A DNA stretch of 25,503 nucleotides from Synechococcales cyanobacterium VAR_4_metabat_354 (GTDB lineage Bacteria; Cyanobacteriota; Cyanobacteriia; Cyanobacteriales; Chamaesiphonaceae), in contig JANOQI010000049.1 in assembly GCA_031414775.1 (NCBI GenBank), positions 1 to 25,503 on the forward strand, in the 5' to 3' direction. A program made the position numbers. Positions 12,001-18,000 of the stretch are shown in pieces (within the stretch, counting starts at the first letter, position 1; every line of letters begins with the position of its first letter).

Positions 12001-15000
12001 ATGATTTAGTTCTTGGAAATCATCACCGCCCACGGCGTGGGGAAAGCGCGCCATTCTGAAATAGCGAGTAGCTGATCCATGCTACCCCACTCGGCCACTA
12101 GAGGCGGCAAAGTAATATCGCGCAGTTGACCATGAACGATCGAGATATCGTGAGTGGCTTGAAATCTATCCGTAATTAATTCCATAATATTCGGTGCAAA
12201 ACCATCGTGGAGTTCCACAATGATGTCCATCTGTCTCAGGGAGCTGGCTTCAGCCGGATTTAGTAATTCTTCTTCGCCTCCTTCAATATCACATAATACT
12301 AGCGTTTTGCGATCGACAAACTGCTGAAAATCAGCAGGTTGAAAAAGGCCGTTGATACTCACTCGATCGCTCACCCCATTTTGCACCGCTAGCTGCCGAC
12401 AGTCCTTGTGAGCCGCCAAGTTAGTGTCGTAGGCAAAAACCTGAGCTTGGGGCATTAACATGGCTAAACCCACGGCATAGAAACCTTCGGAGCAACCAAC
12501 ATTCACCACTGCTTGATAAGGGCGCTGAATTGCTGCTCGGAAGTAAGGTTCTAGTTCGGCCTCATAGCAACCCAGTAATTTCGCGATGTAGCAGCCCTCC
12601 GCACAGTCTGGCAAATACTTCATACCCTGAAACAGTCCGGCCTGGACAGTGAATCCATAAGTCTTGGTAAATTGCTCTTGCAACACACTGGCACGGTGCA
12701 ACGATAACAACCGCAAAGCCTCCTTAAGACTATCAGTAGAAGCGGTGGCAATTAGCTCAGGAAGCTGCGGGTCAATAGTGAAAGTCGAATTCATGTAGCG
12801 TGAGATATACAATCCGATACAATATAACTTGTTTAAAGGATCACCATGGAAATCGTCTTTCGAGAATTTAACCCCTTCAATGTCTGGTTCTGGATGGAAT
12901 TCAAAACTGTACCCTCCACCCAAGAGCAAAACTTGATCGAGGAGACTTTTTCTTCCTGGTTTTTTCTGGGGAAACTGGGCAGCTTCAATGCTGAGAATAT
13001 GCAGGTGCAAGAAACTGGCTTGGATCTTAGCTATATGGAATACGATTCTAGGGTGGCCGACGATAGCCTAATGGCTGTCATGCATAACATGGGTGAAATT
13101 GAATATTTAGGCACTTGGGGACGGTGTTGGTTTGATTTGGGCACTAGTGATGCGATCGCTCTTGACATCTTAGTTAATGCTTTGCAGCGCTTAAGTGTGG
13201 AATATGTAGAACTCGATCGACTGGTGATTGGCGGTGAAAATGAAGACTGGCCGGTAGAACTCGATCATCAGCAATCTCTGTTCTACGACGAAAATGATGA
13301 TAACTAAGCTAGAGTAAAGGCATTGAGTTTGATTTGAACGGAGTCAAAACGTGGCCAAATATACCCCTTACAATCTTCAGCTGCAAATCTCCCGCATGTT
13401 TCAAGATGGTCAGAGCCTATTTGCCAGCATTAAAGTTCAAGATTGGCTCAAAGAGCGCAATGAAAATGCGGCTGATTACGAAATCTCTTTTACGAAGTGT
13501 CCGGCGGCTCCTGGCTCTAGAGAAGTCCAAATCGTTGATATTAACCTGAAGCGGAAGGATGGTCAGCCGGTGGCTGATTGGCTGCTGGAGCAACTGACCA
13601 ATAACTAAATTCCCTATGAATTTAAGTTAGTAAATCTATTGTTTTAGGTGAAATGAAGTACTTAGCATGGACAGTTTCAGTAGTACTCATAGAGATTCAC
13701 TGAAACTGTTTATACTATCTATCGGCTATTTCGCCGAGTTGCTGGATTCTTGTAAATAGGATTACAAACATCCACATTAACACTGACATTAGCACCAGTA
13801 GAACCAGCGTGATCAACATTGTTAGTGTTGGTAGATTTACCACAGGTATCGCTTACCCCAATCTGAATATCATTGTGGACATTGGCTCCACTCGGGTTCT
13901 TGATTTCGCTACGCGAGTTTCGCTTGCGATTGGTAGGGGTACCACCATTACCCATATTGGTAAAAACATCAACGTTGTTAACAGTGTTACCGGAACTGCC
14001 AGCCATAGCTGGAGGCATAGAGATACTGCCCAAAATGACAGCAGCCAGGGCTAGAAGGCTAGAATGTTTAATCTGCATAGAAATCTCTGATTAGTTTGGT
14101 TCGCGATTTAGTCGTCTAGATCTAGGGAAAACTGGGTGATCCCTCCTTGTACTCTAGTTACTGCTTTATGGCCGTCACCAGAAGAATGGCTAGAAAAATT
14201 AGATTGATAGCTGGAACTACCACCAGAGTTAGTGATGGTCGTGGTAGTAATAGTAGAAGAACTAAATGGTTTGAGAGTTCGACTATTTTTACTATGACTA
14301 TATTGGTTGTACCAATATCCCCGACTCGGTTGGCGGCGAGGAAGTTCGCTATCTACCTGAAATCTGCCCATTTCAATCTGTGTACCACGGCCAGAGCCAC
14401 GGATTATTTTGACCTTTCCGGCCTGAATAACCTGATTATTATAGGAATCGGCATAAGCACTGCCAACGATCGATAGCAATGCAAGAGTAATAGTTGCTAT
14501 GCCTAAAGTCCAAAATTTGCGGTGAAACATATTTATCTGCTCCAATTTTAAAAGGGACTACTATCCACATGAGTTTTGATGGCAGTATTGTAGTCCCTAA
14601 TGAGTCAAAAAATATCTATTGAAGATTGTTAGCGACGAAGACGACGACTATCTTGACGAGTGATACTTTCTTGCTTGTTGACATTCACGGTGTCATTACC
14701 GTTGCCGAAAACATCGTTAGATTGGGTATTGACAATAGAAGTACCAGAATCACCAGTTCGACGACCTCTTTGAGTAGTCGTAGATCTTTGCTTACTAACG
14801 TTGACAGTAGAGTTACCGTTACCAGTAATCACATTAGTTTGCTGATTATCTAAAATAGTAGCGGAGTCACCACCAGCAAAAGCGGGAATACCAGTGATCA
14901 GTAATAAGGCAGAAGCGAGACCGAAAGATGCTGTGCGTAAAGACATTAGTTTTTCCCTGAGTTTAGTGTAGATGTTCGTTCTTGATGCTAGCCGTTCTGA

Positions 15001-18000
15001 GTGATTAGCGACGAAGACGACGACTATCTTGACGAGTGATACTTTCTTGCTTGTTGACATTCACGGTGTCATTACCATTGCCGAAAACGTCGTTAGATTG
15101 GGTATTGACAATAGAAGTACCCGAATCACCCGTTTTACGACCTCTTTGAGTAGTCGTAGATCTTTGCTTGCTAATGTTGACGGTAGAATTGCCGTTACCA
15201 GTAATCACATTTGTTTGCTGACTATCTAAAACAGTAGCTGAGTCACCAGCAAAAGCGGGAATACCAGTGATAAGTAGTAAAGCAGAAACGAGACCGAAAG
15301 ATGCTGTGCGTAAAGACATTAGTTTTTTCCTGTGAGGTTAAGTAAAATTAAGCTAAGTTGTTATCAATGCTGTTTAGTGTCCGTAGCGTGGAAATCCTCT
15401 ATAACGCTGGAATCCTGGACGCTCAGTATTGCGAACTTCCGCTTGCTGTGTATTGCGATTCACACAAGTATTGTTGTTGCCAGCGATGTCACAGCTTTGG
15501 TTGCTCCGTATTGAAACACCGGTACCACCGCCACCCCGGGTGGAAACGTTAGCCGACTGGTTACTGATATTGGTGGCATTGTTGTTATTGCCAGTAATAA
15601 CCGTGTTTTGGTTATTATCGAGTACTACGGCAGTGTCAGCAAAGGCTGGAACAGTAGATAGCACTACAGAAGCGAAAACGATACCAAAGGGTACTTTAAA
15701 CAAAGACATTGCAAACTCCTATTAAGTTAGCTTTATAAACGTAGCAATGTACATAATTAGAGAGGAAGTTCGAGAAGTTGTTAAAGAGGCTCTGTTGTCG
15801 ATATCGCTGGGTTTGCGATGAAGATGTCGTAATGTCAGCAGAACCTTTCTAAGCATTTTCTAAACTTCTTCGCTTTAAAAGTATGAATTGCTCATGTAGT
15901 TAGAGACTACAAGTCTATAAACCAGGTTCCTGATAGTTCAAAATAAATTGGTTGAATAGCTGTGAAATTCAAATAGGAAGATGTTTTTAATACTGAGTAT
16001 TATGTTGCAGAAGAAATGTATGGTGGGCGATTTATAGCGAATGATGCCTTTATTGACCATTTGTTAGGTCGGGTAAAGACTTCGGCATTACATCCATATC
16101 TCATCAGCCCTTGAAAAGCCGTATAAATGCTTTTAATAAATTTTTAAAAAGCAAGAGCTAAAAAACTTATATTATATAAGTATTTTGGCTGAGTTGAAAT
16201 CGCCCAAATCTGAAGTTACTGTGGTGATAACTTAGTCAAACCAGCTATTTCGTGGCGAAGAAACTAACCGAATGTAATTTTGGGGTGAGAAATATTTGAA
16301 AGTATTGATTTTTCGTTGTTCGATTCGGCGTAGCTGAGAGAACTACCTCCAAAAAAATACAGCTGAGAATATTGTCAACTGTATTTTTTCACTATGTAGA
16401 TATCTACTGGACTAGTAAGATTTATAGCTCTTTGCCTAGTCTAAATTAATGCCAATTTATGAAATATTCAGTACTAACTTTTGACGTAGCATCCCAGTAC
16501 CACTAGTCTCCAGTGTGGAGCGCATGTTTTTGTTCGTGCTGTAAAGTTCAATCTGGACGGACGAGTCTGGATTGTAAGTACCTTCAATGCTAACTTCGCA
16601 GGTCGATCGATTGAGACAGCTCGTTAAATTGATTGATCGAGTGTTCTGCAAATTGGCGATAAATTTACCATTGACTTTTATAGTACCTTTGATCTGAGCA
16701 TTAGCCGCACCATCAATTTTCAAGAATAGATCTGACCCAGCTAAATTTTTGCGGGCAATAGTAATAGTCGATTGTTGCTCTTGGGAGTTGGATATGATGG
16801 AATTCTGGGCAGTATTAGAATAGGATGCTGTGGTCGTAAATCCGCCCAAAGCCGTACAGGTTGCAAAAGATATCAAAGAAGTAGAGGAGAAACGCATATT
16901 TTTTACTTTAAAGTTTAAATTTTTTAAACCCTGAGCAGACTACATAATAATCTTTGTAATTCAGACAAGGCGTAGCAATTCCAATGGGGTGTAAAGTACT
17001 ATTATAATCTTTGCCATAAGAGACCTGCTGGCATTTAAAGCACGTAAAATTAGCATCAGTGGTAGCCCAAAATCTGTGAATGAAAACCTACAACAATATC
17101 TAATTCTAGGGCAACCAGTACACCTGTCCTCTGATTACTTGAGATGGCTAATTAATAGATTAGACCGAAATATTAGCACTCATGTCATCACCATGAATTC
17201 CGAAATGATCATGCAGGCTAATCAAGACCCCCAGCTAGCCAGCATCATCCAACAAGCCGATCTAGTGGCCGCCGATGGGGCGGGAGTGACGCTGGCGCTC
17301 AAATTAAATGGGATCAAGCAGCAGCGCTATGCTGGTATTGATCTGGGAGCAGCACTGCTGAAAGTAGCTGGGAAGCAAGGTGCCGATTGTCCAGTAGCTT
17401 TTTATGGTGGTAAACCAGCAATATTACCCAAAGCAGTGAATTTTTGGCAGCAGCAATTTCCCCGTCTCTCGGTTGTGATCCAGCACCATGGCTATATTAC
17501 CGCCGCAGAGCAAGAACAGCTACTAGCTGAACTGCAAGCTCAACAGCCCCGAATTATTTTGGTGGCACTAGGCATTCCTCGCCAAGAAGTTTGGATTAGT
17601 GCGCATCGACACCTGTGTCCTCGATCGATCTGGTTGGGAGTTGGTGGTAGCTTTGATGTCTGGTCCGGAACCAAAGCTCGCGCCCCCGAACTCATCCAAA
17701 AACTGAATATGGAATGGCTATTTCGCTTGGCTCAAGAACCGAGCCGTTGGCGGCGCATACTGGTACTACCACAGTTTGTCCTGTTGGCTATTCAAGAATG
17801 GTGGCAGAAGAAATAAGTGTCATACCTGTTCACTGCGCTGTACTGAAGGTAATCAATCAATTATAATGCATAGCGGCTCGCCCAAGCCAGCGTTCACTTC
17901 ATAGCGGAATTTTTCTATGGCATCTATTCGTGAGTTACACCAACAGCTGGTGAGCAAAGAGCGCTCTGCTGTCGAGATTACTCAGGCAGCACTCGATCGA

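Follow-up and report, generated by a model that had tools for sequence, protein, structure and literature searches.

The locus raises the question of what three adjacent genes for small, exported, Q/N/G-rich proteins encode, and whether their products could form a fibre comparable to curli. The genes lie in a window of 25,503 nucleotides, which is the whole stretch of DNA analysed, from the genome of Synechococcales cyanobacterium VAR_4_metabat_354. A preliminary description placed them in a rock-dwelling cyanobacterium, a setting that nothing in the analysis supports: the sequencing runs listed with most of this DNA are X1–X4 only, all from one study, labelled freshwater sediment metagenome and possibly the source itself, and no RNA run is listed. 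The paralogous genes g55, g56, and g57 occupy positions 14629–15709 of the window on the minus strand. They and their neighbours are as follows.

13719..14078, minus strand: g53, exported Asn-rich protein of 119 aa with two Cys and an RRNSR end
14108..14530, minus strand: g54, exported protein of 140 aa from its ATG, probable member of cassette family D
14629..14946, minus strand: g55, 105-aa family protein and recent tandem duplicate of g56
15005..15319, minus strand: g56, 104-aa family protein; signal peptide 15248–15319, repeat 1 15131–15247, repeat 2 and RRLRR end 15008–15130
15374..15709, minus strand: g57, 111-aa family protein; signal peptide residues 1–24, repeat 1 about residues 25–60, repeat 2 about residues 62–97
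16457..16897, minus strand: g58, exported protein of 146 aa, cassette family C, weak DUF6013 match (E 0.011)

The array and its protein family

The listed 143-aa ORF of g55 begins too early, and a start giving 105 aa was adopted. g55 and g56 share 94% DNA identity over the coding sequence and about 15 nt upstream, and 95% amino acid identity; g57 shares 43–46% amino acid identity with either. With dN/dS values of 0.12 between g55 and g56 and 0.14–0.36 against copies from the same genus, the three are genuine genes on which purifying selection acts. Self-alignment revealed an internal two-fold repeat in each protein, with best scores of 107 (g55), 98 (g56), and 61 (g57), compared with 26–28 ± 5 (maximum 45–49) in 200 shuffles per protein. 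Scores of g53, g54, and g58 fell inside the shuffle range. The ORFs were present where stated, and the earlier account of three adjacent paralogs with a PAFA-type Sec signal and two Q/N/G-rich repeats was confirmed. The repeat 2 of g57 carries the pair Cys73/Cys82 and is followed by a C-terminal Arg/aromatic tail.

A profile built from six sequences retrieved 106 representative proteins at E ≤ 1e-3, including 26 at E ≤ 1e-10, a larger family than the 45 representatives counted before at the same cut-off. Nearly all are 91–126 aa in size with one matched stretch each, and no multi-repeat form occurs among the 106. Each protein contains two Q/N/G-rich repeats of 37–39 residues. The consensus from 94 aligned members, Q31-x3-Q35-x2-V-I-T-G41-N-G-N44-x3-Q/N48-x-S-x-Q52, recurs at an offset of 39 and agrees with the pattern first noted (Q-x3-Q-x2-V-I-T-G-N). 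In this alignment G41/G80, N44/N83, and Q35/Q74 are 84–100% conserved, Q52/Q91 87–89%, and Q31/Q70 and Q48/Q87 53–65%, and the conserved polar positions follow a single parity along both arms. The Cys columns 76 and 85, both in repeat 2, are occupied together in 27 members, are both empty in 67, and are never occupied singly (n = 94). This all-or-none pattern indicates that the two arms of repeat 2 touch each other, and speaks for an oxidising compartment. Site conservation, Cys covariation, and the fixed repeat register together point to a defined fold, and as judged from the alignment the repeats are ordered rather than of low complexity.

The mature part is composed of 13.6% N, 10.4% Q, 10.3% S, 10.5% T, 9.2% G, and 10.4% R, contains hardly any aromatic or large hydrophobic residues, and is net positive in 66 of the 94 members. 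An Arg-rich end, with at least three K/R in the last 12 residues, is present in 86/94. The earlier account spoke of Arg-rich tails; in the alignment an Arg cluster closes every repeat, and the end is no separate appendage.

Export was assessed by a simple rule that asks for a basic N-region, a hydrophobic core, and a small residue at both −3 and −1, and that excludes a lipobox Cys at +1. Of the 94 aligned members, 93 pass this rule and carry a Sec-type presequence, in agreement with the reported signal ending PAFA. The presequences have a median length of 24, with A at −1 in 90/94, A, V, or T at −3 in 90/94, and P at −4 in 88%. The family does not have a double-glycine leader; of the three proteins, g55 alone has a GG after the AFA site. 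Besides the periplasm, the thylakoid lumen is a possible destination of Sec-exported proteins in cyanobacteria.

Of 201 genomes sampled from the same order, 44 contain family members, which are essentially absent elsewhere in a phylum sample. At least two matches were present in 33 of the 44 positive genomes, and tandem copies number three here and eight consecutive in genome G107. None of g53–g57 matched any Pfam family at E ≤ 1, as had been reported at a stricter threshold, and NCBIfam returned only noise for these five proteins. The sole matches of the family profile among PDB sequences were bacterial leader peptides of recombinant Fab chains, in line with an export signal. These searches support the view that the family is absent from domain libraries and is new to them. 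A single member (1/94) gave a weak match to PF21300, the grass antifreeze beta-roll (E 0.0067), which was taken as noise.

Predicted stacking and comparison with curli

The preliminary description reported a model in which copies stack head to tail and in register, with repeat 2 of one lying on repeat 1 of the next. This prediction was reproduced with g57, a paralog outside the first test. Four copies of g57 residues 25–100 gave an ipSAE of 0.68 (range 0.66–0.70 over three runs, against 0.01 for the best of three controls), a value to be read with the tendency of structure predictors to stack Q/N-rich repeats. Partner pLDDT was 83–85 and contact agreement at least 95%. The calibration mark of the predictor is reached by 20 of 30 proteins solved as pairs and by 1 of 23 solved as single chains, counts that hold only roughly here, where four copies and our own alignment were used rather than two copies and other alignments. 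In the model, residues 62–97 of one copy lie on residues 25–60 of the next, and the offset of 37 stays constant over both arms and the turn. Constant-offset contacts imply parallel in-register layers, not an antiparallel sheet. The predicted assembly of g57 thus contains strand-arc-strand layers in register, with head-to-tail contact between subunits. The model of the monomer has a pLDDT of 56 and a pTM of 0.29, with four long strands (27–40, 45–59, 66–79, and 84–98), and showed no fold match when compared to the PDB.

By sequence, the proteins are not curlins. No Curlin_rpt match at E ≤ 1 was obtained for the 5 window proteins, the 94 aligned members, or 16 further ones, in scans where the HMMER filters discard most matches above about 0.1. 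Comparison of the family (mature part or single repeat) with CsgA/CsgB of E. coli K-12 by hhalign yielded probabilities of 0.07–1.6%, a weak test with only 2 proteins or 8 repeats on the curlin side. Curlin_rpt (PF07012) was not found at E ≤ 1 anywhere in the genome carrying the array, which is 99.96% complete. Searches of the same genome for CsgG, CsgE, and CsgF (PF03783, PF10627, and PF10614) were negative at E ≤ 0.1, with each profile matching in the E. coli control. The proposal of a system lacking both CsgEFG and Curlin_rpt is therefore consistent with these searches. As for the proposed curli-like fibre itself, the predicted in-register stacking of g57 agrees with it; homology to curlin is undetectable and the likeness is architectural only.

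Several features are shared between the family and curli. Both are Sec-exported, Q/N/G-rich, and built from imperfect repeats read as strand-arc-strand, and small exported helpers (putative ones in the family) are encoded alongside, one of them Ig-like (here g58, by its model). CsgC of curli has such an Ig-like fold. In both, a Gly-containing arc leads to Asn and then to a terminal Gln, in the family as T-G-N-G followed by N44-x-T-x-Q-x-S-x-Q52 and in curlins by the repeat grammar N-$-Psi-$-Psi-$-Q with X-G-X-X (PMC10192328). Head-to-tail, in-register, parallel stacking, predicted for the family, is also the model described for curli (PMC10192328). The repeats of the family are longer and fewer, 37–39 aa and constantly two, whereas curlins have repeats of about 23 residues in numbers of 4–22 or more (PMC10192328; PMC3521004). 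The Arg cluster closing each repeat is unlike curli, as is the gene content: CsgE, CsgF, and CsgG of csgBAC-csgDEFG were not found, and the partner families B, C, D, and E match no known family. The host range also differs, the family being confined to one order of Cyanobacteria; the word "Cyanobacteria" does not occur in the main text of PMC10192328 and occurs once in PMC3521004, as a sample name.

A conserved cassette of small exported proteins

The array is part of an undescribed cyanobacterial cassette of small exported proteins, comprising families D, B, C, and E, none of which matched a known family. At least one of B, C, and D was found in 42 of the 44 family-positive genomes. Conversely, the family was present in 35 of 38 genomes with B, 30 of 34 with C, and 23 of 24 with D among the 201, where 5–8 would be expected. 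In most of the 21 loci analysed, partners and family genes lie side by side; in genus g2 (G107 and G033) the family genes are far apart from B and C or on separate contigs. By these loci and genome counts, the array is not a solitary set lacking putative helpers. The cassette shows no evident outer-membrane exporter in the loci examined. A C39-ABC exporter gene is located at 2171–5251, 9–12 kb from the array, and is not conserved next to the family across the other 20 loci.

g54 encodes an N-terminal beta segment (..QAGKVKI..G..G.QIE.G..Q) followed by a basic Ser/Thr-rich region, and is probably a member of family D. In BLAST searches it matched L035_6001 at 2e-5, and L035_6001 matched D members at 3.7e-4 to 0.02; an HMM of D alone did not reach g54 at E 0.01. 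Of 24 genomes positive with a profile that includes g54, 23 have D genes beside those of the family. g54 and g53 had both been described as looser kin of the array. For g54 this was ruled out, as no similarity to the family extends past the signal peptide. For g53 it holds in a restricted sense: the protein matches the family profile weakly (E 7e-4 per genome, 2.6e-6 in a small set) and by these matches is a degenerate relative in which the Gln and Gly positions are lost. g53 occupies the position held by family B in other genomes (hhalign against B: probability 22%, E 1e-3), and g53-like proteins were found only within this genus, at 3 loci.

Residues 41–146 of g58 were modelled as an Ig/Fn3-like beta sandwich, with a pLDDT of 80 overall and about 90 in the domain. 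The model gave generic sandwich matches only, the best with a Z of 5.8 in VIA and an E of 4.6e-3 in Foldseek. Family C is present in 10 of the 21 loci and in 34 of the 201 genomes, 30 of these family-positive. The weak DUF6013 match of g58 was already noted, as was weak methyltransferase similarity of the ORF at 12006–13010, and both were confirmed.

A putative fibre subunit and its alternatives

The explanation that we tentatively prefer, with a chance put a little short of even, is that the products of g55, g56, and g57 are the abundant subunit from which an extracytoplasmic cross-beta filament is built. The proteins would be exported by Sec and cleaved after PAFA. The mature part of about 80 residues would consist of two equivalent strand-turn-strand units of 37–39 residues, each opening with Asp, turning at T-G-N-G-N, and closing with an Arg cluster, with conserved Gln/Ser/Thr/Asn on one face of both arms. 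A lone subunit may be poorly ordered until its repeat 2 stacks, parallel and in register, on repeat 1 of the next subunit. Each subunit is predicted to add two layers to a polar two-sheet beta-solenoid that is open-ended and bears Gln/Asn ladders, in which the architecture of curli would arise from a non-homologous, wider repeat. Arg clusters along one edge of such a fibre could bind anionic polysaccharide, LPS, or DNA. D (g54), C (g58), B, and E would be helpers or minor components, such as chaperone, nucleator, cap, or anchor, roles that single-repeat variants and a partly RTX-type protein with several arches may share in some genomes.

Several observations count against the filament. Structure predictors tend to stack Q/N-rich repeats, the monomer model is poor, the cassette offers no evident outer-membrane exporter by which a Sec-exported subunit would leave the periplasm, and in genus g2 family genes and partners are scattered. 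The strict two-repeat size, kept in nearly all 106 representatives, equally suits a closed small fold or dimer, and the Cys pair is compatible with an ordinary beta-hairpin as well as a beta-arch. The size and the Cys pair would both suit small folded envelope proteins, with two long hairpins that form a dimer or a closed sheet of four strands, located in the periplasm or on the outer membrane, where Arg clusters could tether them to peptidoglycan, LPS, or sheath polysaccharide in a structural or adaptor role within the cassette. The all-or-none Cys pair would be a classical cross-strand hairpin disulfide, and the four long strands of the monomer model, the net positive mature part in most members, and a cassette without an outer-membrane exporter are in line with this. 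We nevertheless consider it rather unlikely, given the low pLDDT of the monomer against that of the stacked form, the parallel in-register layers implied by the constant-offset contacts, and tandem amplification to 3–9 copies, which suggests bulk material. It is improbable that the proteins are hydrophilic, largely disordered, hydrophilin-like protectants or matrix fillers, exported to hold water or coat polysaccharide without a defined assembly. An N/Q/S/T/G/R-rich mature part with few aromatic or large hydrophobic residues and a low-confidence monomer model would suit such fillers, but the G, N, and Q sites remain 84–100% conserved among sequences only about 25–45% identical, Cys covariation is perfect, and the repeat register is fixed.

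Small, exported, tandem, and diverging paralogs with an Arg-rich end, lying near a C39-peptidase ABC exporter, could also suggest a diversifying array of secreted cationic antimicrobial or competition peptides. This appears very improbable, since the leader is Sec-type with an AxA site rather than double-glycine, amphipathic or hydrophobic segments are absent, and the copies are under purifying selection. The cassette has no recurrent immunity or modification gene, its partners are beta-rich and exported, and the exporter is not conserved beside the genes in the other loci.

Beyond the filament itself, a wider reading, which we regard as doubtful, is that the cassette is a complete, previously unrecognised cyanobacterial functional-amyloid system. 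An extracellular beta-solenoid fibre would have the two-repeat glutamine-ladder protein as its major subunit, C with its Ig-like fold would prevent premature polymerisation, and single-repeat variants or a degenerate g53-type protein would act as caps or seeds. In some lineages the surface-bound template might be a type-I-secreted protein in which the same arch motif recurs five or six times, and the Arg stripe would attach the fibre to anionic sheath polysaccharide. If true, this would be another independent invention of a bacterial amyloid machine beside curli, Fap, TasA, and chaplins, and would involve the smallest natural solenoid module known to polymerise.

Other known systems resemble the array in part. 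The chaplins of Streptomyces and gvpA of cyanobacteria are each encoded by several small paralogous genes, often in tandem, whose products self-assemble into a beta-rich surface or structural polymer. The likeness lies in the tandem small paralogs; chaplins are hydrophobic and one-domain, GvpA lacks a signal peptide, and the sequence and cell biology of both are unrelated to the family. EbfG proteins are exported by a C39-peptidase transporter. EbfG1–4 of Synechococcus elongatus PCC 7942 are likewise small secreted cyanobacterial proteins from a gene cluster, linked to matrix and biofilm (PMC9981879; PMC4997328), and EbfG1–3 are reported to form amyloid structures (PMC12267927, citing Frenkel 2023). 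They have a double-glycine leader as described in PMC4997328, and the family is set apart from them by its Sec-type leader with an AxA site and by a repeat that appears unrelated. The narrow, two-faced solenoid with core-bridging Cys found in insect antifreeze proteins would fit the Cys76/Cys85 pair of the family. These Tenebrio-type beta-solenoids are monomeric, with internal disulfides, 12-residue coils, and a Thr ladder.

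The gene array and the two-repeat family

The minus strand carries six small genes between positions 13719 and 16897 of the window:

16457-16897, minus strand: g58, 146 aa, exported protein family C
15374-15709, minus strand: g57, 111 aa, two-repeat family
15005-15319, minus strand: g56, 104 aa, two-repeat family
14629-14946, minus strand: g55, 105 aa, two-repeat family
14108-14530, minus strand: g54, 140 aa, probable exported protein family D
13719-14078, minus strand: g53, 119 aa

The gap between g58 and g57 is AT-rich and 747 nt long, and the intergenic gaps from g57 to g53 measure 29-98 nt. 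Self-alignment revealed an internal two-fold repeat in g55, g56 and g57 (scores 107, 98 and 61) far above shuffled sequences (26-28 ± 5), and no such repeat in g53, g54 or g58. None of g53-g57 matched a Pfam family at E≤1 or an NCBIfam model in a meaningful way. The preliminary description of repeat-bearing paralogs outside Pfam was therefore confirmed. One of g55 and g56 is a recent tandem copy of the other. Their DNA is 94% identical across the coding region plus some 15 nt upstream, and 13.5 synonymous and 5.5 non-synonymous changes separate them (dN/dS 0.12). The g57 protein shares 43-46% identity with both. A promoter scan of 13300-17100 returned 5 promoter-like sites where 8.6 ± 3.4 were expected, and a terminator scan of the same region gave nothing useful. 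Among the sequencing runs listed as containing this DNA, none is of RNA.

A narrow profile (A2), built from the three window paralogs and three close matches, was searched against 1.84 billion representatives and retrieved 106 at E≤1e-3, 26 of them at ≤1e-10. Nearly all are 91-126 aa long with one matched stretch each. The wide alignment (A3, n=94) consists of the three window paralogs, three close matches (one also a representative) and 88 more representatives, and leaves out 16 long, short or odd matches. A Pfam scan of all 110 proteins reached neither Curlin_rpt nor any other family convincingly. These are real, conserved genes with Sec-type leaders and a strict, ordered two-repeat architecture. 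The presequence in A3 has a median length of 24, with P at -4 in 88%, A at -3 in 73% and A at -1 in 96% of members. Both units follow one pattern, D-x-[AG]-[VT]-[IV]-Q-x3-Q-x2-[VI]-[IV]-T-G-[ND]-G-N-x-[TS]-x-[QN]-x-[SN]-x-Q, after which five or six variable residues lead to an Arg cluster. Such a cluster ends repeat 1 at positions 58-61 (R 35%, R 46%, G 40%, R 44%) as well as repeat 2 at positions 96-103. The Arg-rich tail of the preliminary description is therefore the repeat's own end and no separate appendage.

The conserved polar positions (31, 33, 35, 39, 41 and 44, 46, 48, 50, 52, all of the same parity within each arm) are arranged symmetrically about the T-G-N-G turn, and the numbers of paired positions always add up to 83. 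Cysteines occupy both positions 76 and 85 of repeat 2 in 27 of the 94 members, including g57, and neither position in the other 67; no member has only one. This all-or-none covariation places both arms of one repeat in contact and also speaks for an oxidising compartment. The face with less conservation shows a systematic difference between the repeats: A3 position 38 in repeat 1 is Val/Ile in 74% and its counterpart 77 in repeat 2 is Asp in 80%; alternate stacking of the repeats would put them in a Val/Asp ladder, which recalls the Asp 'gatekeepers' of CsgA in the available part of PMC11414021.

One 365-aa representative left out of A3 (P0071) carries the two-repeat module flanked by two stretches that match the cyanobacterial COP23 domain (PF14218, E 1.3e-29), a domain that came up in the literature search only as a transcript marker. 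The nearest ESM Atlas clusters of g56 and g58 are cyanobacterial and without a name, except for one labelled 'filamentous hemagglutinin'; this name is automatic and was not trusted.

Cassette partners and distribution

Flanks of about 9 kb to either side of the family genes were fetched from 20 other genomes, and the ORFs were called and clustered with those of the window (21 loci). Four more small signal-peptide protein families (B, C, D and E) recur beside the family genes, usually in the order family-D-B-C-E; the outer flanks vary between loci.

Partner families of the cassette (loci among the 21 clustered; genomes among 201 of the same order, with co-occurrence given as counts and no probability because the sampled genomes are related and not independent)
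B: 123-174 aa; 13/21 loci; 38 positive genomes, 35 with the family, expected overlap 8.3
C: 137-211 aa; 10/21 loci, including g58; 34 positive genomes, 30 with the family, expected overlap 7.4
D: 108-172 aa; 8/21 loci; 24 positive genomes, 23 with the family, expected overlap 5.3
E: about 190 aa, coiled-coil C-terminus; 5/21 loci

In the same 201 genomes, the family was detected in 35 with A2 and in 44, from 25 of 96 genera, with A3. At least two matches are present in 33 of these 44, with a maximum of nine per genome. At least one partner occurs in 42 of the 44, and the two genomes without a partner (G002 and G018) have the weakest family matches. In the window's own genome, the three window copies are the only A2 matches. 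A phylum-wide sample of 251 genomes yielded 13 A3 positives, 12 of them from the same order; the sole positive outside it is marginal (E 6.3e-4). The tandem amplification of the family, the cassette and its co-occurrence with the family are direct observations. An array of eight tandem copies of a 99-aa member, spaced by about 400-700 nt, was found in G107 (locus L036, contig C3, 3546400-3549983). In this genome B and C lie about 0.8-1.2 Mb from the array, and therefore the array can work apart from its partners. In genus g2 (G107 and G033), the family genes and B and C are far apart or on separate contigs.

No Pfam family was found for B, C, D or E at E≤0.01. PDB sequence searches with profiles of the family, B, C and D gave leader-peptide matches only or nothing below E 0.6, and no PDB sequence relative of B, C or D was found. 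The g54 protein matches a protein of another locus (L035_6001) by BLAST at 2e-5, and that protein matches D members at 3.7e-4 to 0.02; an HMM of D alone failed to detect g54 at 0.01. Since the link runs through intermediates only, g54 is a probable, not a certain, member of D. The g53-like group was seen in this genus only (3 loci), and g53 is faintly family-like by profile and faintly B-like by hhalign (probability 22%). The model of g58 (pLDDT 80, about 90 in residues 41-146) confidently predicts an Ig/Fn3-type sandwich. A specific relationship of C to a known chaperone was rejected, as its structural matches are generic Ig/Fn3 sandwiches only (Z≤5.8). CsgC is not among the 50 matches listed, which carries no weight against it. 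The family was likewise not accepted as homologous to D, B or E; the hhalign probabilities of 45%, 19% and 10% come mostly from the signal peptides. STAND/WD40 proteins adjoin three loci; a link to cytoplasmic amyloid-signalling motifs, the subject of 10.1101/2020.01.06.895854 as far as its available part goes, was dropped because the family is exported.

Several genomes carry, beside the two-repeat genes, single-repeat relatives, in which a signal peptide precedes a lone repeat and a tail rich in P/Q/N/R (L043:8525-8860, L042:8728-9018 and L053:8261-8713). Half-length family matches were obtained in G091, G129, G163, G179, G036, G147 and G008. The single-repeat proteins are candidate caps, seeds or anchors.

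A facultative sixth cassette gene, R, encodes a product of about 350-890 aa in 8 of the 201 genomes: G180 (L038:6531-8129), G044 (L051:10934-12514), G029, G167, G196, G024, G018 and G048. Seven of the eight carry the two-repeat family, and R lies directly behind C or B in five. The two copies inspected, from G180 and G044, lack an N-terminal signal peptide and have 5-6 arch motifs like those of the family ([IV]Q...I.GN.N.V.Q.I.Q) followed by RTX nonapeptide repeats. Type I export of R would place the arch motif outside the cell, a lead that does not count as evidence for this window, and R may possibly act as a surface template for two-repeat subunits. One query did not find R in the window's genome.

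Predicted stacking and comparison with curlin

The monomer model of g56 is poor (pLDDT 56, pTM 0.29). It contains four long strands (27-40, 45-59, 66-79 and 84-98) forming two strand-turn-strand units. A Foldseek search of the family monomer model against the PDB returned no match at E≤10, from a model (pLDDT 56) too uncertain for this to count. Four copies of g57 residues 25-100, a paralog outside the earlier test, were predicted as a complex with the family alignment. The model reached an ipSAE of 0.68 (0.66, 0.68, 0.70) against 0.01 for the best of three controls, by a method that readily stacks Q/N-rich repeats and with a calibration that holds only roughly here (mark reached by 20 of 30 pair-solved and 1 of 23 single-chain-solved proteins). 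Partner pLDDT is at least 83 and contact agreement at least 95%. The predicted interface spans both arms and the turn, with residues 62-97 lying on residues 25-60 of the next copy at a constant offset of 37 (66:29, 75:38, 79:42, 88:51). This offset points to repeat 2 layering parallel and in register on the neighbour's repeat 1, giving a predicted open-ended two-sheet solenoid that resembles the head-to-tail curli model. The head-to-tail stacking proposed previously is thus reproduced, as a prediction, on a paralog with 43-46% identity.

By sequence, the family is not curlin. The hhalign probability against E. coli CsgA/CsgB and their repeats is at most 1.6%, with a thin curlin side. As the preliminary description stated, there is no Curlin_rpt match, and this extends from the window proteins to the family proteins and the own genome. 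It also held that CsgEFG is missing; a search of the 99.96%-complete own genome found no CsgG, CsgE or CsgF and matched the E. coli control each time. The family repeat is 37-39 residues long and fixed at two per protein, whereas the available parts of PMC3521004 and PMC10192328 give about 23 residues and 4-22 or more repeats for curlin. Both share a common grammar: a Gly-containing arc precedes Asn, small or polar residues point inward in alternation, and Gln closes the unit. The term 'curli-like' therefore stands for the repeat grammar and the stacking model and falls for sequence kinship. Compared with a curli-type solenoid fibre, the candidate here has an unrelated repeat and an unrelated helper set.

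We tentatively propose, with slightly less than even confidence, that g55, g56 and g57 are amplified copies of the major subunit of a self-stacking cross-beta filament in the envelope or matrix, made and controlled together with the cassette partners. Beyond the predicted stacking of subunits, we infer fibre formation in vivo and an extracellular location, together with putative roles for the Arg edge and for any of D, B, C and E. The chief alternative is a small, closed protein of the envelope that forms no fibre. The fixed two-repeat size and the lack of an evident outer-membrane exporter favour this closed protein, and the Cys pair fits an ordinary hairpin equally well; the open-ended, in-register model of g57 speaks for the filament reading.

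Significance and other features of the window

Little is known about protein fibres in the matrix and sheath of cyanobacteria. In a topic-word literature search, the EbfG peptides were the only amyloid-forming cyanobacterial proteins encountered; they carry double-glycine leaders, according to the available portions of PMC9981879, PMC4997328 and PMC12267927, and are unrelated to the family. The search returned no description of the family, and a nameless sequence family is unreachable by text. The family is limited to one large cyanobacterial order, tandem-amplified and tied to at least three uncharacterised exported families (B, C and D), with E as a fourth in 5/21 loci. As a candidate fibre system of the matrix or sheath, the family and its cassette are concrete and testable and include candidate helper genes. 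An 80-residue, two-layer module predicted to self-stack, with a built-in cationic edge, may be of interest to protein-material design. Should the fibre reading prove wrong, the cassette still points to an unexplored function of the envelope in about one fifth of the sampled order genomes.

Other genes and elements were observed in the window. A type I secretion set at 2171-10931 (minus strand) comprises an ABC transporter (1026 aa, with a cyclic-nucleotide-binding domain at the N-terminus and also a C39 peptidase domain), a PPIase, an HlyD-type adaptor and an RTX protein of 781 aa with 15 matched repeat stretches. The set is no conserved neighbour of the cassette at the other loci. The RTX protein (8586-10931) is without the family's arch motif, and a link between the two was rejected (E 0.73). 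A methyltransferase-like ORF at 12006-13010 (minus strand), listed from a TTG start, overlaps a DUF3531 gene (12846-13307, plus strand, E 5e-67) by 165 nt, and its true start is probably further downstream. A cobalamin riboswitch (20648-20791, plus strand; Rfam RF00174, 53 bits against a gathering score of 31.5) directly precedes a CobW-type GTPase gene (20789-21859).
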